Shown here piece by piece: positions 3,009 to 52,642 of a stretch of DNA of 64,000 bases (position 1 is the first letter of the stretch; the number at the start of each line of letters is the position of its first letter). A model generated the notes under the pieces. It made no database searches, was not told where the DNA came from, and saw only the letters and a list, made by a program, of their open reading frames with translations. Source of the stretch: Justusliebigvirus VEcB; the sequence record OZ035773.1; one strand, 5' to 3'. Both the position numbers and the translations under genes were made by a program.

Positions 3009-5783
3009 TTAGTTTACCAGTTTATTTATATCTGGTAAAAGATTTATTTCACCTAAGAAATCACCTTCACCTTCCTCTAGCCAACTCTCATATGCTTGTG
3101 CATGATTATAGTTACCATCAAAAGAATCTGCAACAAATTTTTCTACAGTTTTTCGAGATGTGCCAGCACCAAATACACCAAGTTTAATACCATTGATCGG
3201 TAAAGTGGTGCTTGTGGGTACTTTCTCTGTTGCAACACGGTTGATATCTATAATCTCCTGTACGGTTGTATTCCATTGTAAGCATTTAACACAACGGGTA
3301 TGCGCTACATACAGTAGGTTTCGCTCTGCCTCTTCTAGTCCTACCCATTCACCAGTCTTTTTATCATAATTGGAAGGAAAATCATTAGCAACAATAACCT
3401 GATCCCACTCCAAACCTTTAGACTTGTGTGCTGTAGTCAATGTGACTTTTGCTGTAGGAGAATTTCTATGCGTTCTAAGGGTATGTGCTATAGTGTTTGC
3501 CTTACCAGAAACTACAATGTTTAACAAGCGTTTAGCATCTGGATCAGCCTCTGCACACTCAACAAATTCATCCCAGTCTGCGTAAGGTAATACAGTTTCA
3601 TGTTTTACTTTCTCAATATCTCCTCTCCGAAGAGCATTAACACTATCTACCATAGAGATAAAATCCCTGGTATCTACGTTAATAATAATTTCTTCCCCAT
3701 CTGCAATACGATCCATTGCCTCCATAAGCAAGGTTAAATTCTTGCGAAAGATGATAGTGTAAGGTTTTGTATAGTCTACAACATCTGATTTGTAGCTACC
3801 TACTACAGTATCAAAGCCTTTACCAACCAAAGGATGACGCAAAGGTTCTTTATCGCTTAAAATCATATTGGCAATGTTTGCCACTTTGGGGCCAAAACGG
3901 AAGCAAGCAGTTAATGGAAGTTCTGCCCCATACTTAGCTGTTTCAATCATCATATTAGAGCTACCTCTAAATTGATAAATGCAGTTGTGGCTAAGAATTT
4001 CATTGCCAAAGAAGTTAGCAGTATCCTCTACTTCAATATCATAATAGATACCCTCACTATCTACAATGTCCACAATCTCTTCTGCCGTTACAGTATCACC
4101 ATCTTTTACCAACACAGACATGCCTTTAAACAAACCCGCTGCCGGAATTAAGTTATATTTGGCACTGTTCACAGAGGACATGCATTCTTTTAAAGATGCA
4201 AACGGAACTATTTCAAGGATCTTTTGTGCAAAACTCAATGCTTCACGATAAGAATTGAAATATTTACGTACACGGTAACGACCTTCCAATTTAGCAGCAC
4301 TTACGCTTACACCTGCTTTAATCAGTGAAGAATAGATCGGCATTTCACTTTCTGTCCACTCAAAACTAACTTGTGTTCCTTTACAACCTTGCGCTCGCAA
4401 AGTCACTGTTAGCATTTTTCTTTCATCTACTGCACAATTGATGCTGTGCCAGTGTGGATAAGCAAAATGATAATCTTTATCCTCTAAAAGTTTAAAACCA
4501 TTTTGTCCGAATTGTTCAAAGATGTTATTGATCTTTTCTTGATTAATGCCGCGTGAACTTGCTTCAAATACACAAGTAGGAATGCCATATTGTAAACTGT
4601 AAGCCATTTCTTTTTCCATAGCAGCTTCACGGTTTTCAACAATATCCAACACCCATAATTTCTGTGCTTTTTCAGAACGTGTACGTTGCCCCAGTTTAGA
4701 AAAACCTTCTTTATCATCGAATTTGTTAGTGATCCCTACTCGGAAACCTAAATCTTTCCTCCACATTAGGTATACCACCATCTGATCATCTTTCAGAACA
4801 TAGGATGAAGCCCAAATACGATGGTTATGTGTCATATCTAAAGTTTTACCTGTGGCAGTAATAATATTCCTACCTTTTGTACGTGTAGATAAAGTCTTAT
4901 TTGTTACTTTTCTAAATGTAATTTTACCATTAGAATAAGACTCTACCTTATCACCGATTTGTAGGTCTTTCATTGTAACCTGACCATTCTCGGTATTAAG
5001 TACCGTGTTTTCCGACACACATTGGAATTCGTCACCCACTACCACAATTTGTTTTGCAGATTTAGCATTTCGCAGAATAGACAAGAATGCAGGGTTAACA
5101 TCCTGGAATTCATCACCAAAAATAATATCATAACCAAGATCAGCACCAGACAATTCAAACAATTTTACATAGGTGTCATGCGTCATCAAAGTATCTGTAT
5201 TAGGATCAATGCGCTCTCGCCACAATTGTTTTGCATACTTAACTACTTCTGTAATTAGTTTGTGTTCGTTAATACCTTTTCTTTTAATATCTGCAAGATG
5301 TACACTAGGAAAATGTTTACGGCTGATAAAAGGATCATCCGAAAATTCAAACTTACCTACGGTTTGCTTGATCATTAAACCGATCATAGCACGAGTTAAA
5401 AGTGTTTTCCCTCGTTTATCAATAAGATTATTAATCTTAAATTTCTTTGCTATCTCGCTACCTGTACCTGCAACGTTAACATACTGTCCTTCTGGTCGTG
5501 ACAGTTTTGCACGTAAACGATGGTCCAGGAATTGATAGCAAATAGAATGCAATGTACGGCATTCTACATTTAGTGGCATCTTACGTCGTGCTTCTTCTGC
5601 CATGCTTTTATTGAAAGCTAAGTAAAGAATGCGATCTTCTGTACTGTTAGCCAGCAAATAAAGTGTTGACGTTTTGCCTGATCCAGATTTAGCTTGGATA
5701 GTTAAAAAGCGATGGTCTGGAAAAGCCTCCTTAATAGCTGTTTGCTCTTCTGTTGGAGTGAAGCTCAACTCTTTCTTAGCCAT
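3009..5783 (-). CDS. UvrD/PcrA-like SF1 DNA helicase, interrupted by an intein
   Basis: Walker A AKSGSGKTST, motif II GDEFQD, motif III GDEFQ|CIYQFRG split by in-frame insert; start placed at ATG 5783 (SD AAGAGAGG), track ORF extends 13 codons further. Confidence 0.8.
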   Translation of the reverse strand: MAKKELSFTPTEEQTAIKEAFPDHRFLTIQAKSGSGKTSTLYLLANSTEDRILYLAFNKSMAEEARRKMPLNVECRTLHSICYQFLDHRLRAKLSRPEGQYVNVAGTGSEIAKKFKINNLIDKRGKTLLTRAMIGLMIKQTVGKFEFSDDPFISRKHFPSVHLADIKRKGINEHKLITEVVKYAKQLWRERIDPNTDTLMTHDTYVKLFELSGADLGYDIIFGDEFQDVNPAFLSILRNAKSAKQIVVVGDEFQCVSENTVLNTENGQVTMKDLQIGDKVESYSNGKITFRKVTNKTLSTRTKGRNIITATGKTLDMTHNHRIWASSYVLKDDQMVVYLMWRKDLGFRVGITNKFDDKEGFSKLGQRTRSEKAQKLWVLDIVENREAAMEKEMAYSLQYGIPTCVFEASSRGINQEKINNIFEQFGQNGFKLLEDKDYHFAYPHWHSINCAVDERKMLTVTLRAQGCKGTQVSFEWTESEMPIYSSLIKAGVSVSAAKLEGRYRVRKYFNSYREALSFAQKILEIVPFASLKECMSSVNSAKYNLIPAAGLFKGMSVLVKDGDTVTAEEIVDIVDSEGIYYDIEVEDTANFFGNEILSHNCIYQFRGSSNMMIETAKYGAELPLTACFRFGPKVANIANMILSDKEPLRHPLVGKGFDTVVGSYKSDVVDYTKPYTIIFRKNLTLLMEAMDRIADGEEIIINVDTRDFISMVDSVNALRRGDIEKVKHETVLPYADWDEFVECAEADPDAKRLLNIVVSGKANTIAHTLRTHRNSPTAKVTLTTAHKSKGLEWDQVIVANDFPSNYDKKTGEWVGLEEAERNLLYVAHTRCVKCLQWNTTVQEIIDINRVATEKVPTSTTLPINGIKLGVFGAGTSRKTVEKFVADSFDGNYNHAQAYESWLEEGEGDFLGEINLLPDINKLVN
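3984..5021 (-). mobile_element. intein (346 aa) within helicase motif III
   Basis: Insert begins with Cys (CVSENTVL), has TxxH block (THNHRIW), ends ...SHN followed by Cys (+1); flanked by contiguous helicase motif III halves. Confidence 0.7.
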
Positions 5784-5784
5784 T

Positions 5785-6261
5785 TCAACCTCTCTTAATT
5801 TGTTTAACAAGCATAGGAACAAAATCTCGTTTTAAAATTTGTTCAATAATATGATCAGGTAGCTGTTGGAAATTATAATTAAAAGCTACTGTCTCACCTT
5901 TAGGTGTTTCTACCCGCACATATAACATGTTACGAAGTTTATCCACTTGTGCTGTATATTCTAAACCATGTAATTGATGCATTGCAAACATCAAATCATC
6001 AGTTTCAGTTTGGAATCTATCATTTGCTTGCATTAAGGATAAGGTAAAAGGTAGATTTTCCCTAAGAGCCACCTTCTTAGGAACTAGTGAAGGAAAATAC
6101 TCACCAATAACTTCCTGTGTAAGCTGGATACACTCTTTTTCAAGTTGGTTTTGTTCCTTAAGTTCACAAACACTTTTTTGTAAAGTGTTAACCTCTTTTT
6201 GCAAAGCTGCTAGTTGAGCACTTAACTTTCTTTTTTGATTACGACCAAAACGTTTAGACAT
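5785..6261 (-). CDS. hypothetical protein (158 aa), coiled-coil N-terminus
   Basis: Track ORF; SD AGGGGGAAAT upstream. Confidence 0.5.
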   Translation of the reverse strand: MSKRFGRNQKRKLSAQLAALQKEVNTLQKSVCELKEQNQLEKECIQLTQEVIGEYFPSLVPKKVALRENLPFTLSLMQANDRFQTETDDLMFAMHQLHGLEYTAQVDKLRNMLYVRVETPKGETVAFNYNFQQLPDHIIEQILKRDFVPMLVKQIKRG

Positions 6262-11085: not shown

Positions 11086-11442
11086 TTACATCCACAGATT
11101 ATGGAAATACTTAGCAAACAAAATACGACCTTCTAAACGATCTTGCCGCTGTTTTTCATTAACTTCTTCTGGTGGAGTTAAATCCTTAAAAGAGGACTCC
11201 ATTTTTTCAAGAATTTCTAGCCAGTGTTCTGCTGCTCGTTCTTCCATATAAGGTAGATAGTCACCTTTAGCGTGTGGGTACATCCGACGAAGTAACCCAC
11301 TAGGAATTTTAACATTGTTTGTGGCTATCACTTTTGCACGATATGCAGAAAGTGCATTGTAGATCAGTTTACTTAGTGTCACATCCAGATCAAGAAGATC
11401 ACTCTCTTCAAATTGAATTTCATCGTGTACAATTTTCATCAT
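11086..11442 (-). CDS. hypothetical protein (118 aa)
   Basis: Track ORF; SD GGGAGAAGG. Confidence 0.5.
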   Translation of the reverse strand: MMKIVHDEIQFEESDLLDLDVTLSKLIYNALSAYRAKVIATNNVKIPSGLLRRMYPHAKGDYLPYMEERAAEHWLEILEKMESSFKDLTPPEEVNEKQRQDRLEGRILFAKYFHNLWM

Positions 11443-11723
11443 GCCTTCTCCCGATCTGCGTCTAATTTCAACAAGAAAGCTGTATACTCTTCCGAACCTT
11501 GGTGTAAAAACATGCGATAAGAGCTTACCAGTTTCTTCGTTGTTGTATAACGTTCCATTTCCCCAACAACACCTCCACCCAGTGTGTAGAGCACAACACC
11601 CTCAAACCCAACATGAGTTACTACTTCAACCAAATCTGTGTTATCCCAATGGTAGTTAGGTGACACAATAAGATCGCCAACTGCCAGTTTAATGTTTGCT
11701 GCTTCGTCTTGTGAATAGTACAT
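11439..11723 (-). CDS. hypothetical protein (94 aa)
   Basis: Track ORF; SD GAGAGGAGAA. Confidence 0.5.
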   Translation of the reverse strand: MYYSQDEAANIKLAVGDLIVSPNYHWDNTDLVEVVTHVGFEGVVLYTLGGGVVGEMERYTTTKKLVSSYRMFLHQGSEEYTAFLLKLDADREKA

Positions 11724-11735
11724 TTTGTTCTCCTC

Positions 11736-12026
11736 TCACATTAAGACACGTTTTGTACCGATGGGAGCATTGTCGAACATGTTTATCACTTTGTCAAGTT
11801 TGTGTATTAACTCGTTCGTAATGTTCCACTCTTTGTATGATCTCCATTGTTTCTTATTCTCACCTACCTGGTGTAAAACTTTGATTGGTGCATTCAAACG
11901 TACATTGCGTTCTTTGTCCTCTTCAAAAGAGGCTAACCATTTTTCGTTATGCCCATGAACAGCAATAATAATGCCAAAACCATCAAAAGTTTCTGTAATA
12001 TTCTTAGTTGCTAGTGTGATGTTCAT
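11736..12026 (-). CDS. hypothetical protein (96 aa); first gene of minus-strand arm
   Basis: Track ORF; SD AAGAGG. Confidence 0.5.
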   Translation of the reverse strand: MNITLATKNITETFDGFGIIIAVHGHNEKWLASFEEDKERNVRLNAPIKVLHQVGENKKQWRSYKEWNITNELIHKLDKVINMFDNAPIGTKRVLM

Positions 12027-12085
12027 ATCTAACCTCTTTTGTTACGATGCACACAGAGTACCAGAAATTAATTTCAGATCAAGTA

Positions 12086-12113
12086 TTGACATACTGTTTT
12101 ATTGTGCTAATCT
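12086..12113 (+). promoter_or_regulatory. sigma70-like promoter for the plus-strand island
   Basis: TTGACA, 16-17 nt spacer, TAATCT; located in divergent intergenic region. Confidence 0.4.
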
Positions 12114-12145
12114 TAATGCATACACAAATGAGAGGAGATAAACGA

Positions 12146-12697
12146 ATGCAAAACATCGATCTGACTTGGATAGAAGCCAAAGAAGCAATGTTAAAAGGCA
12201 AACGCGTTAAACATAAATACTTTTGCGAAGGAGAATGGTTTGAAATGCGTAACCGATCCATTGTAGATGAAAAAGGGAATGACATGCAACAATGGTTCAA
12301 AAATGAAATTTGGCAGGGAACAGGTTGGTCTGTAGTTGAAGAGCAGCCTAGCTCAAGCGCACTGTTTAGCCCTATTATGTATTGCGTTATCGGTGCTTTA
12401 GTTGTTGATCACGGGATTGCAGTGGAAAAAGAATGCTGGGAAGAGGTATCTTTTTTCAACCTGGCTTCTTATGCAAAAAGCCATATGCACTTGTTTGAAG
12501 AAGGGGATGAATTTGTTCTTCGTATGCGATATGGCAAAGAATTCAGATTACCACTTGATAATGATGTAGACACTGTTGTAAAATGGTTAGCAGAGCATTA
12601 CGCTTACGATGCAATTTGTGGTCGCAGCTTCGGCAACGAACGCTGGGACATGATTTGTGAAAAATATGATTTTGAGCCGGAGTACGGAGTTTTATAA
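12146..12697 (+). CDS. DUF2829 (Tad2-like) domain protein with C-terminal extension
   Basis: From ATG 12146 (SD GAGGAGA): MQNIDLTWIEAKEAMLKGKRVKHKYFCEGEWFEM...WSVVEE matches DUF2829 hallmark pattern; track ORF starts 33 codons upstream without RBS. Confidence 0.55.
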   Translation: MQNIDLTWIEAKEAMLKGKRVKHKYFCEGEWFEMRNRSIVDEKGNDMQQWFKNEIWQGTGWSVVEEQPSSSALFSPIMYCVIGALVVDHGIAVEKECWEEVSFFNLASYAKSHMHLFEEGDEFVLRMRYGKEFRLPLDNDVDTVVKWLAEHYAYDAICGRSFGNERWDMICEKYDFEPEYGVL

Positions 12698-21423: not shown

Positions 21424-21639
21424 ATGGCTAATATCCGCACCTTGTTAAAAAATGCAAAGCAAGTTTTATTTTCAGATGACGAATATTTTAATAAAGATAT
21501 TACAGGCGTGAAAAATCTTAAAGATGTGAAAGATGTGATAGGTATTCGCGGATCTTTACGTAAAGGTGACACATACGGTAACAAGGTGCAATATAAATTA
21601 GATCAGTTTTATGATTTTACTTTGACAATTATTTCATAA
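21424..21639 (+). CDS. hypothetical protein (71 aa)
   Basis: From ATG 21424 (MANIRTLL...) behind cassette 7. Confidence 0.5.
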   Translation: MANIRTLLKNAKQVLFSDDEYFNKDITGVKNLKDVKDVIGIRGSLRKGDTYGNKVQYKLDQFYDFTLTIIS

Positions 21640-33133: not shown

Positions 33134-33538
33134 ATGTGGTCTGTTAAAATCAAATATAATGCGCAGTATTATGGTGGAAAGCCTTACGAAGTTGTTATTT
33201 GTGACTGTATCTCTAAAGAAGTTGCACAGCTTTGTGGCGCTGGTGTTAGTGAAGCTATGAACAAAATGCATAACTCGACTGTGCGTTACCTGGATCAAGA
33301 TATTCCAGAAGATGTAAATGACTATGCTTACGAAGTTATTTACAGTGAAGGTAAGAAGCTCTCTATTGAAGATGCACTTAAAGCACTACCTGCTATGTGC
33401 AGCCCAACGCCAGAAGCAGTTAAAGAGGTTTTACCAGAATCCAACCCCGATGAATATGCTTCTATGGTTGCTTCAGATATGTGGAATCTCTGTCGAGAAA
33501 CTATGATTAAAAATCTTGTGGAAATGGCGCATGAGTAA
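33134..33538 (+). CDS. hypothetical protein (134 aa)
   Basis: Track ORF; SD TAAGGAGAG. Confidence 0.55.
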   Translation: MWSVKIKYNAQYYGGKPYEVVICDCISKEVAQLCGAGVSEAMNKMHNSTVRYLDQDIPEDVNDYAYEVIYSEGKKLSIEDALKALPAMCSPTPEAVKEVLPESNPDEYASMVASDMWNLCRETMIKNLVEMAHE

Positions 33539-33749
33539 AACACACTTTATACATCCGTTTGATCCAAAGAACAAGGCGGTTATACACCGCCGTTGGACTG
33601 AAACGCGCATTACAAAATGTCCTGTGCCAGCAGCACAGGAATATAACAAAACATATAAAGCAGAATTTGTGGAGTACACCTTTGTAAATAACAAAGGGAA
33701 GGAGGTTTATGTTCCAGAATACTGCCTTTGGATAAAATGGGAGGAATAA
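33531..33749 (+). CDS. hypothetical protein (72 aa)
   Basis: Track ORF from TTG 33516; first ATG at 33531; weak RBS. Confidence 0.35.
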   Translation: MSKTHFIHPFDPKNKAVIHRRWTETRITKCPVPAAQEYNKTYKAEFVEYTFVNNKGKEVYVPEYCLWIKWEE

Positions 33750-40078: not shown

Positions 40079-40083
40079 CACAT

Positions 40084-40108
40084 AAACCCGCTTCGGCGGG
40101 TTTTCTTG
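40084..40108 (+). terminator. rho-independent terminator
   Basis: CCCGC-ttcg-GCGGG followed by TTTTCTTG. Confidence 0.65.
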
Positions 40109-40832: not shown

Positions 40833-40856
40833 AAGAAAAGGGGCTTTCGCCCCCTT
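40833..40856 (-). terminator. rho-independent terminator (minus strand)
   Basis: GGGGC-gaaa-GCCCC followed by TTTTCTT on minus strand, just downstream of Sir2-like gene. Confidence 0.55.
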
Positions 40857-40863
40857 GGTTAAG

Positions 40864-44461: not shown

Positions 44462-44486
44462 ACAAAAAACCCGCCGAAGCGGGTTT
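44462..44486 (-). terminator. rho-independent terminator (minus strand)
   Basis: AACCCGC-ttcg-GCGGGTT followed by TTTTTTGTT on minus strand. Confidence 0.6.
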
Positions 44487-44489
44487 ATA

Positions 44490-47237: not shown

Positions 47238-47810
47238 TTAATGTGTTAATGAAACTGCATAACTAAACACAGGTTCAGATATTACATCGGCTACAGTAAT
47301 AAAAACGTCCTCGTCTTGCGTTGTTTCTACACGACATACAGTTACACCATTTACCACGAATTCAACGCAATGTGGAATATCTTCACAAACGAAGGTAGTG
47401 TAAGTAACACCCAAAGCATCATACAAAGATTTAACAGTGTTTGCAAGTGCCGCAGTTTCTTCTTTTTCTGAGACAATGAATGCTGTAACAATAAGATTGT
47501 TTGCATAGTTTAGACTGTCCTCTATAGCCAATGATTTACAAGGTAGTAATGCAAAATATTTACCTGGTTTAATCAGACCTGCTTCCCATTGATTCAAAAT
47601 TGCCTGGGATGGTTTAGTAATATAAAATAGATTTTCACTTGGGTTATCAATATTACTTCTGGCGATACAACGTGAAGGATTATTAATATCAAATACATGA
47701 TCAAAATCTACACAAACAGGTAAACTGAAAGGTGTAAATTTTTTACCTAATAATCCTATGGCTGATAATATGTTTGCTGTGCTTATCTTCCCGTTAAAAG
47801 CTAAACGCAT
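47238..47810 (-). CDS. hypothetical protein (190 aa)
   Basis: Track ORF; SD AAAGGAG. Confidence 0.55.
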   Translation of the reverse strand: MRLAFNGKISTANILSAIGLLGKKFTPFSLPVCVDFDHVFDINNPSRCIARSNIDNPSENLFYITKPSQAILNQWEAGLIKPGKYFALLPCKSLAIEDSLNYANNLIVTAFIVSEKEETAALANTVKSLYDALGVTYTTFVCEDIPHCVEFVVNGVTVCRVETTQDEDVFITVADVISEPVFSYAVSLTH

Positions 47811-47821
47811 ATTTAACTCCT

Positions 47822-48025
47822 TTAACTAGCGACCGTAACTTCCGAACTTTCTTCTTTCGTACTGTCTACGATATGCCTGGTGGCAATATACGAGACTTGC
47901 CAGTTACCATCTGGTGTAGTCTCAATAAGTACCCTATCTACTTCGAGAAAATGCAAAAATTCAACCATCGCTCGCTTCGATAGGAATTGTTTTTTAACAG
48001 TCTCCTCAAAAGATTGAACTGCCAT
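47822..48025 (-). CDS. hypothetical protein (67 aa)
   Basis: Track ORF; SD TAAGGAGGAAAC. Confidence 0.5.
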   Translation of the reverse strand: MAVQSFEETVKKQFLSKRAMVEFLHFLEVDRVLIETTPDGNWQVSYIATRHIVDSTKEESSEVTVAS

Positions 48026-48034
48026 GTTTCCTCC

Positions 48035-48697
48035 TTATTTAATATTCAATTTTGCACAAAGACGTTGTACCGCTTTGGCATCGAACAAACTCCCACGAAT
48101 AGTTCTCTTTCCTGATTCATTCAGATGCTTTGCAATCGTCATATATGGCGTTTTACAAGCTCTGTATGCAACTAAAGAATCTTTTAAAGAAAGCGCAAAC
48201 TCTCTTGAGCGTTTTGCTTCTTCCGTTTTCGTATAGTCTGTTCTTTTGTATTTAGGGTTTGCTGCACCAAGAAGCGTTCCCTTCGCTTTTGCTACCTTAA
48301 GGCTCTTCTTAACACGATCAGATATTGCACGAGCCTCTTCTTCTGCCAGAACTGCTAAAATATTTATTATCATATTTTCAGCGGAGGGCATAGTTGCTAT
48401 TCGTACATTAATCATCTCTAACAAGGTTGCAACAGAAGCTGTGTTACGTCCAAGACGGTCAACCTTAGCAACAACAAGTGTAGCACCTGTTTCTTTGCAA
48501 AGATTAACAGCTTTTACAAGCTCTCTACGTTGCTTCCAATCGCCTTTACCCGAATAAAACTCTGCAAAGCTACCTATAATAGTATAATTTTCTTGTGAAT
48601 CCAGGAAGCGTTGAATATCTGCTTCCTGTGATTCTATACCATACTGGTTGCCTTGTTGTTTCTTCTTAGAAAGTCGATGATATAGTACAAACTTCAT
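48035..48697 (-). CDS. serine recombinase (resolvase/invertase family)
   Basis: Catalytic region LYHRLSKKKQ (Ser), VAKVDRLGRN, LAEEEARAISDRVKKSL; C-terminal HTH-like segment; SD AGGAGGG. Confidence 0.75.
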   Translation of the reverse strand: MKFVLYHRLSKKKQQGNQYGIESQEADIQRFLDSQENYTIIGSFAEFYSGKGDWKQRRELVKAVNLCKETGATLVVAKVDRLGRNTASVATLLEMINVRIATMPSAENMIINILAVLAEEEARAISDRVKKSLKVAKAKGTLLGAANPKYKRTDYTKTEEAKRSREFALSLKDSLVAYRACKTPYMTIAKHLNESGKRTIRGSLFDAKAVQRLCAKLNIK

Positions 48698-48754
48698 AAT
48701 ACCCTCCTGTTCTGTTACAGGAAGTATGCACTACCTTAATGTTAAAGTCAACAG

Positions 48755-48958
48755 TTAAGTAGTGGTAATATCATCCTCTTGAATACCAGGGTCAACTTCT
48801 GCAAAGATAGCCTCTACAGGAATTTCTTCACCTGCTATTCTAGAAAGAAGCACTGAACCAATAGCTTTTGCGTGTTCTTCGGATTCCGCATAAACATTAG
48901 TTCCTGTGTCTTTTTTCTTAGTTTCGTTAAAATATACCAGATAGTAATTGTATGCCAT
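48755..48958 (-). CDS. hypothetical protein (67 aa)
   Basis: Start at ATG 48958 (SD GGGAAGAATAA); track ORF 4 codons longer. Confidence 0.5.
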   Translation of the reverse strand: MAYNYYLVYFNETKKKDTGTNVYAESEEHAKAIGSVLLSRIAGEEIPVEAIFAEVDPGIQEDDITTT

Positions 48959-52116: not shown

Positions 52117-52141
52117 ATAAAAGGGGCTTTCGCCCCTTTGT
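52117..52141 (-). terminator. rho-independent terminator (minus strand)
   Basis: GGGGC-gaaa-GCCCC followed by TTTTAT on minus strand, between lysozyme and phoH. Confidence 0.55.
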
Positions 52142-52642
52142 TTAGTTATAAGCGTCTAATGTTCCAGTTTTAAGCACCTGAATTACACGCTCTGCGCGAT
52201 TAGGCGTTTGGCGATACCATTTACTTTTACGTAAATTTATAGAGGCTTGAGTATAATATGAATTACTCACTAAAGTCAAGCTATTTTTGAAAGATTCTGC
52301 ACCTTTCAATCCCATTTGAAATACCATATTAATAATAGCCATTTTACGATTAGGACTTACTTTATCGTAAATAGGAGATAATATGGTGCTTGAATGGATT
52401 TGTTGTATCGCTTTCTTTACGTCACTCTCAAAGATTCTTCTAGCTTCCGCTTCAGTAATAACTCCATTGGTTTTTCTACCTACTAAGTTATCAAGAATGC
52501 GTATAGCTTCTGCTTTATCTTTGAGTTTTGTCAGAAGGTGTCCAATACCAACTGTCCAATACCCTTCGGTATCAGGATATACAGTTAGCTTTAGTCCTTC
52601 ATCAAAACGTAACATATCAAACACATCAACTACTTTAGCCAT
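52142..52642 (-). CDS. T4-type lysozyme (GH24 endolysin-like)
   Basis: MLRFDEGLKLTVYPDTEGYWTVGIGHLLTK and C-terminal RQTPNRAERVIQVLKTGTLDAY match T4 lysozyme signature regions; SD TAAGGAAAAC. Confidence 0.85.
   Translation of the reverse strand: MAKVVDVFDMLRFDEGLKLTVYPDTEGYWTVGIGHLLTKLKDKAEAIRILDNLVGRKTNGVITEAEARRIFESDVKKAIQQIHSSTILSPIYDKVSPNRKMAIINMVFQMGLKGAESFKNSLTLVSNSYYTQASINLRKSKWYRQTPNRAERVIQVLKTGTLDAYN

Follow-up and report, generated by a model that had tools for sequence, protein, structure and literature searches.

What a small serine recombinase does in the genome of a virulent phage is the question raised by an open reading frame (48035..48697, minus strand) in a 64,000-nucleotide stretch of Justusliebigvirus VEcB DNA (sequence record OZ035773.1), hereafter referred to as the window. 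In a lytic phage, a strongly conserved and apparently active site-specific recombinase for which no substrate is known poses a minor biological question, and the answer is approached here through the gene and its surroundings, the architecture of its product, a search for recombination sites, and the inheritance of the gene.

The gp053 gene and its surroundings

About 55 Justusliebigvirus genomes, among them phi92, PaulScherrer and alia, share 99% identity with the analyzed region, which identifies the host genome as that of a phi92-like virulent myovirus. Phages of this type have been described as lytic, lacking lysogeny genes and carrying direct terminal repeats (PMC12210895, PMC12695924). 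The gene lies in the leftward early/metabolic arm of the phage, and the original prediction was thus right about both the virulent character of the genome and the arm in which the gene is placed. The open reading frame (220 aa, with the stop codon within the coordinates) was defined by the list of reading frames, a Pfam match and 99% identity to the phi92 protein. It is the orthologue of Phi92_gp053 (YP_009012384.1), and the 99% identical proteins, the same neighbours and the same strand show that the phi92 gene and its Justusliebigvirus orthologues are the same gene, referred to below as gp053.

The RefSeq product name of gp053 is "DNA invertase". No experimental support for this name was found, nor did a literature search find any paper discussing the function of gp053; the label is a homology name and probably misleading. 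The recombinase had been called unexpected in such a genome, which was an overstatement, as gp053 is a conserved and annotated gene, present in all of the approximately 55 Justusliebigvirus records and, among the records listed, in most of those of Phapecoctavirus. It is an already known gene and an ordinary finding.

The gene starts with an ATG codon and is preceded, 7 nt upstream, by the ribosome-binding site AGGAGG (48703..48708, minus strand), which is conserved in the alignment of upstream regions. A sigma-70-type promoter-like site, TTGACT-N17-CATACT (48723..48751, minus strand), was located by a promoter scan combined with cross-lineage conservation. The scan of the single genome was not significant on its own; the pattern TTGAC(A/T)-N17-xATAxT is conserved at the same position in six divergent lineages while the remaining spacer varies freely, and the promoter call is therefore based on this conservation and not on the single-genome scan. 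In several lineages the stop codon of the upstream gene falls within the -35 hexamer of the recombinase promoter. Footprinting of the 50-60 bp upstream spacer in seven lineages revealed the promoter and the ribosome-binding site only, with no conserved operator, dyad or res-like motif. The 57-bp spacer of the window is thus accounted for by these two elements, and the place where a res-like site would classically be expected holds none. The recombinase is putatively transcribed from its own, host-type promoter.

The gene is flanked by two small genes on the same strand: (i) upstream, a homologue of phi92 gp054 (48755..48958, minus strand; 67 aa), whose counterparts lie directly upstream of the recombinase gene in eight of the lineages compared, and (ii) downstream, a homologue of phi92 gp052 (47822..48025, minus strand; 67 aa), whose ribosome-binding site abuts the recombinase stop codon. 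The adjacent reading frame 47238..47810 (minus strand; 190 aa) carries the RefSeq name "histidyl tRNA synthetase", while other records call it "putative aminoacyl-tRNA synthetase"; its product has no Pfam match at E values up to 10, and the synthetase name looks unsupported.

Catalytic core and C-terminal domain

The product of gp053 matches the Resolvase family of Pfam over residues 4-141 (PF00239; E 1.7e-21, 77.3 bits against a cut-off of 23.3), as well as PHROG 125 "DNA invertase" (E 1.5e-31) and PHROG 95 "integrase", and its profile matches the solved structures of Sin, Tn3, gamma-delta and Gin with E values of 1e-15 to 1e-17. The catalytic domain together with helix E (aa 1-141; 48275..48697, minus strand) was delimited from the Pfam stretch, the alignment, the conservation among 46 homologues, and the strands and helices of the AlphaFold2 model (pLDDT 87.5), in which helix E spans residues 108-138. 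In an alignment with gamma-delta resolvase, Hin and Gin, residues Tyr6, Arg8, Ser10, Arg57, Asp80, Arg81 and Arg84 correspond to Y6, R8, S10, R45, D67, R68 and R71 of gamma-delta, respectively, the last three lying in the motif VDRLGRN (residues 79-85). Across the 46 family members, each of these positions shows either no variation or conservation of at least 90%. This confirms that the reading frame encodes a genuine serine recombinase of the PF00239 superfamily, with the catalytic serine and the DRLGRN motif that had been read from it at the outset. With its active-site residues intact, gp053 looks like a catalytically competent enzyme.

The C-terminal part forms a four-helix domain (aa 158-216; 48050..48226, minus strand), modelled with a pLDDT of about 90 and presumed to bind DNA. 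The helix-turn-helix originally proposed here was borne out in part: a helical domain of DNA-binding type is predicted (helices 158-216), but it has no Pfam helix-turn-helix match of its own. HTH_7 (PF02796) is matched neither by the query, nor by its C-terminal 77 aa, nor by any of the 46 family members. The "Recombinase" family PF07508 is weakly matched by 32 of the 46 (best E 3.3e-7), the query itself being unmatched. The best full-length Foldseek match to the model is Bxb1 integrase (E 1e-6, TM 0.42), and the top NCBIfam match is CcrB (N-terminal half; 35 bits against a cut-off of 900), with Mpi at 32 bits against 272; the named families CcrB, Mpi, YneB and XisF were all rejected, their scores being far under the respective cut-offs. 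Two features of the alignment concern the catalytic domain itself: a 10-residue insertion after the catalytic serine (S10...G20-x-x-S-Q24), as in large serine recombinases, and a connection between the DRLGR strand and helix E (beta4-helix E) that is shorter than in resolvases.

We compared gp053 with other groups of serine recombinases. The invertases Hin, Gin, Cin and Pin are alike in the catalytic domain, the Ser/Arg/DRLGR motifs, the length of about 200 aa and the phage-borne location, but the identity of Cin, Gin and Hin to gp053 is only about 32% and confined to the catalytic core. Unlike these enzymes, gp053 has the insertion after the serine, the shorter beta4-helix E connection and a C-terminus that is not of the HTH_7 type, and it has neither an adjacent invertible segment nor hix/gix-like repeats. 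The Tn3/gamma-delta resolvases, Sin and the beta recombinase give the best sequence matches to the catalytic domain among solved structures and act on directly repeated sites, the mode of action proposed below for gp053 too, whereas gp053 has a different DNA-binding domain, no adjacent res site and no transposase, none being annotated near the gene. The large serine recombinases (Bxb1, phiC31, TP901-1 and CcrB) share with gp053 the N-terminal spacing S-x13-Q with G-x-x-S-Q, and the C-terminal motif IAxxLNxxG..T..G......V.R of gp053 is typical of the start of their Recombinase domain. They are, however, proteins of 450-600 aa (450-700 aa for integrases of this class in general). With its 220 aa and four short helices after helix E, gp053 has no zinc ribbon, no coiled coil and only the beginning of what would be a recombinase domain, and neither lysogeny nor an integrated copy was found for it. 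Finally, enzymes of the IS607 type carry a MerR-like helix-turn-helix in front of the catalytic domain, an order opposite to that of gp053, in which the catalytic domain, beginning at residue 4, is followed by the domain of DNA-binding type.

These comparisons show that gp053 is neither a Hin/Gin-type invertase nor a recombinase of the Tn3 type, and that it belongs to a subfamily distinct from the invertases after which it is named. The C-terminal part seems to resemble the first portion of the "Recombinase" domain found in large serine integrases.

Search for recombination sites and an invertible segment

An invertible segment flanked by hix- or gix-like inverted repeats was the first of the roles originally suggested for the gene. 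Within 10 kb on either side of it, and in a self-comparison of the complete related genome alia (OZ035770), the only inverted repeats were terminator hairpins of about 30 nt, and when direct repeats were included, both around the gene and across the genome, the repeats recovered were terminator hairpins and tRNA-like sequences only. When up to 6 mismatches were allowed, the 26-mers on either side of the recombinase gene did not recur elsewhere, except for generic contexts of ribosome-binding sites and ATG codons. Nothing notable as a recombination site was seen in the presumed terminal-repeat region either (window about 23.7-24.05 kb), whose approximate location was taken from the two ends of record LC739536.

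Near-identical GC-rich hairpins (e.g., ATAAACCCGCTTCGGCGGGTTTT) recur at 40082-40104 and 44466-44488, and at 40836-40861 and 52119-52144, and some pairs are perfectly reverse-complementary. The hairpins probably serve as shared bidirectional terminators and account for the only "inverted repeats" of the genome.

Inversions were looked for by comparing five blocks of 24-25 kb with every phage record by BLAST, which covered about 122 of 148 kb (in alia OZ035770, all outside 48-63, 88-94 and 143-148 kb) in approximately 55 genomes. Apart from splits at record ends and one exception in window 1-25000, the Justusliebigvirus genomes are all colinear in the screened blocks. This includes the tail-fibre region, which was wholly covered and is colinear in all genomes.

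The exception is a three-gene module of 0.9-1.2 kb (phi92 gp214-217), revealed by whole-genome alignment as inverted in PD211 (OM401812, 86102-86915) relative to the window (about 11091-12247, comprising the reading frames 11086..11442 and 11736..12026 on the minus strand and the start of 12047..12697 on the plus strand). The records divide into about 24 with one arrangement and about 31 with the other. The junctions are not shared, as the flanking sequence differs between the arrangements and one piece of it is 93% identical to Phapecoctavirus; the ends of the module lack terminal inverted repeats; and the modules are 97-100% identical within an arrangement and 88-96% identical between arrangements. 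Unshared junctions, the lack of terminal inverted repeats and clustering by orientation point to an old mosaic rearrangement and not to a flip-flop switch, and on the same three grounds the module was rejected as a substrate of the recombinase. One gene of the module encodes a DUF7325 protein, and a DUF2829-like domain considered for the product of 12047..12697 found no support in Pfam. A 94-aa "Phage tudor domain" gene (11439..11723, minus strand; PF24144, E 8e-26) is missing at this place in alia and PD211 and is an insertion or deletion inside the inverted module.

The searches thus show that gp053 drives no detectable invertible segment: the repeats are those of terminator hairpins, the flanks have no second copy, and no inversion in the screened part of the genomes can be attributed to the enzyme. 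The suggested flanking sites of the hix/gix type are absent both within 10 kb of the gene and genome-wide.

Inheritance and possible role of the gene

In relatives whose recombinases share 88, 86, 79, 78, 71 and 61% identity with gp053, the gene is likewise bracketed by the homologues of gp054 and gp052, and the arm around it (PhoH-HslV-methyltransferase ... phosphatase) is kept. The gp054 homologue is still found upstream of the gene in a relative with 50% identity and is absent from another with 82%. Across the lineages that have the gene in place, identities of the recombinase and the adjacent methyltransferase are 88/87, 86/88, 82/80, 78/80, 71/69 and 50/49%, and this co-divergence, together with the conserved gene order, argues for vertical inheritance and against a patchy selfish element. 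The pN of 0.09-0.16, with synonymous sites saturated and dN/dS below 0.1, indicates that the gene is under strong purifying selection. An earlier suggestion that it might be the remnant of a mobile element is contradicted by this selection and by the co-divergence with its neighbours, although the locus does differ in the sister genus.

In Phapecoctavirus tuntematon (NC_052660), the homologues of gp054 and gp052 (gp227 and gp226) are adjacent with no recombinase gene between them, and the empty ancestral site (21496-21541) holds a terminator hairpin only. A recombinase gene is found instead about 15 kb away, at 5402-6073, in the oppositely oriented early arm and next to a homologue of window 33531..33749. 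Its product is 58% identical to gp053, whereas the backbone enzymes are 75-86% identical (86% for the methyltransferase). The empty old site and the divergent copy imply that the Phapecoctavirus gene was lost from its old place and that a more divergent allele is present elsewhere; the presence of this copy despite the ancestral loss suggests that the function was retained. In the Phapecoctavirus record Schickermooser (NC_048196, approximately 3890-4160), the first 75 or so codons of the recombinase gene contain several frameshifts and only the C-terminal 128 aa are annotated, which reflects either decay to a pseudogene or sequencing error; if the frameshifts are real, the recombinase is dispensable in culture.

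Outside this group, homologues occur in phages of very different hosts (e.g., Vibrio, Cellulophaga and Microcystis). The best full-length non-phage relatives (34-36% identity, 97-100% coverage) are encoded by lone recombinase genes on Rep/ParA plasmids of 6-30 kb. These "recombinase family proteins" of about 215-230 aa, e.g., those of Synechococcus elongatus plasmid pIITB3_2 and Phaeobacter piscinae plasmid pP18_i, are homologous to gp053 over the full length and have the same two-domain build; they differ from it in sitting on Rep and ParA plasmid backbones. Small Rep/ParA plasmids are the usual setting of multimer-resolution enzymes, and from this context we infer that the plasmid relatives may resolve plasmid multimers. 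A search of 5,426 complete E. coli genomes did not recover the locus in any of them, no close relative of the recombinase was found in a scan of one genome per species (185,579 species), and plasmid matches were all below 60% identity; together these results give no sign of integration or plasmid carriage.

The gene is kept by selection as an accessory gene of virulent myoviruses of the Stephanstirmvirinae type. The reading that we tentatively favour, as possible though short of probable, is that its product is expressed early and has a resolvase-like action on one phage-borne site. Dimers of gp053 would recognise a single specific sequence present in one copy per genome, and two copies of it, located on sister genomes or on consecutive units of a multimer formed in replication, would be recombined, with strand exchange proceeding in the usual way through a Ser10-phosphoserine linkage and subunit rotation. 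Multimeric replication forms would thereby be resolved or interconverted. Concatemer resolution, also among the roles first suggested for the gene, would fall under this reading. The gene is fixed and not patchy in the manner of homing-endonuclease genes, and is therefore probably of benefit to the phage. Between genera, the DNA-binding half is 49% and the catalytic half 70% identical, and faster divergence of the former is what would be expected if the target co-evolves on the phage; this difference and the relatives on plasmid backbones favour a resolvase-like action on a site of the phage itself. The lack of both an invertible segment and lysogenic or episomal copies was also counted in its favour. 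Against it, we know of no need for a site-specific resolvase in the direct-terminal-repeat style of replication and packaging, and the frameshifts of the Schickermooser copy, if real, would count against it too. No recombination site for gp053 was found in the searches of repeats, flanks, upstream spacer and terminal-repeat region, a result that weakens every reading of the gene. It is a rather unlikely proposition, in more general terms, that virulent terminal-repeat myoviruses keep an active, early-expressed recombinase for a lytic step that has yet to be described, either processing of their own genome or rearrangement of host or rival DNA.

The second of these options can be stated more specifically, as a recombinase made early and directed at the host or a competitor, which would rearrange a site in a chromosome, prophage, satellite or plasmid for takeover or counter-defence. 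The sigma-70-type promoter of the gene, its location in an arm with many genes of accessory or host-interaction type (including DNA methyltransferases, a Sir2-like protein, a phosphatase and PhoH) and the failure to detect a partner site in the phage genome are consistent with such a role, but among phage lineages whose hosts are similar it is the DNA-binding half that has diverged faster, the catalytic half more slowly, and homologues occur in phages of widely differing hosts. To our knowledge, a host-directed site-specific recombinase of this kind has no precedent, and we regard this role as improbable.

We are equally doubtful that gp053 is a self-mobile or selfish single-gene cassette, consisting of promoter and recombinase, moron- or IS-like, which would persist by moving between phage genomes and be of little benefit to the phage. 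The compact unit with its own promoter would fit this description, as would the changed location of the gene in the sister genus, whose ancestral site is empty but for a terminator hairpin, the Phapecoctavirus allele that is far more divergent than the backbone and thus suggestive of horizontal replacement, the scatter of homologues over unrelated phages and plasmids, and the frameshifted copy in one record. However, about 55 close relatives show no patchiness of presence and absence, the position is fixed with co-divergence with the neighbours down to 50% identity, neither terminal repeats nor conserved end sequences were found, and the domain order is the reverse of that in IS607 TnpA.

Much less probable is a domesticated DNA-binding regulator that has lost recombination. 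Tn3/gamma-delta resolvases are known to act as repressors, and the lack of a substrate site would be in keeping with such a change, but all catalytic residues are kept across the family and no operator-like dyad is conserved at the promoter of the gene. The least probable reading, a classical Hin/Gin/Cin-like invertase flipping a phage segment such as a tail-fibre switch, is suggested by the RefSeq and PHROG names and by one small module occurring in both orientations among isolates, but is largely refuted by the absence of HTH_7, the low identity to Cin, Gin and Hin, which is confined to the catalytic core, the lack of any genome-wide inverted repeat longer than the terminator hairpins, the colinear tail-fibre region, and the unshared junctions, repeat-free ends and clustering by orientation of that single module.

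Recombinase genes are often read as a flag of lysogeny in phage-therapy screening. As gp053 is fixed in a virulent lineage and no integrated or episomal copies were found, it should not be read in this way.

Several further observations concern the genomes compared. In relatives of window 1-25000, a UvrD/Rep helicase and a DNA polymerase are both annotated as containing inteins, and phi92 carries an HNH endonuclease gene between nrdA and nrdB, so that several selfish elements reside in the same genome. Small indels are frequent in the region of tRNA and small genes. Four GenBank records labelled "Campylobacter phage" with C. jejuni as the host (MG065639, MG065645, MG065656 and MG065689) are 97-99% identical to phi92-like E. 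coli phages in every block searched, and their Campylobacter labelling and host assignment look doubtful.
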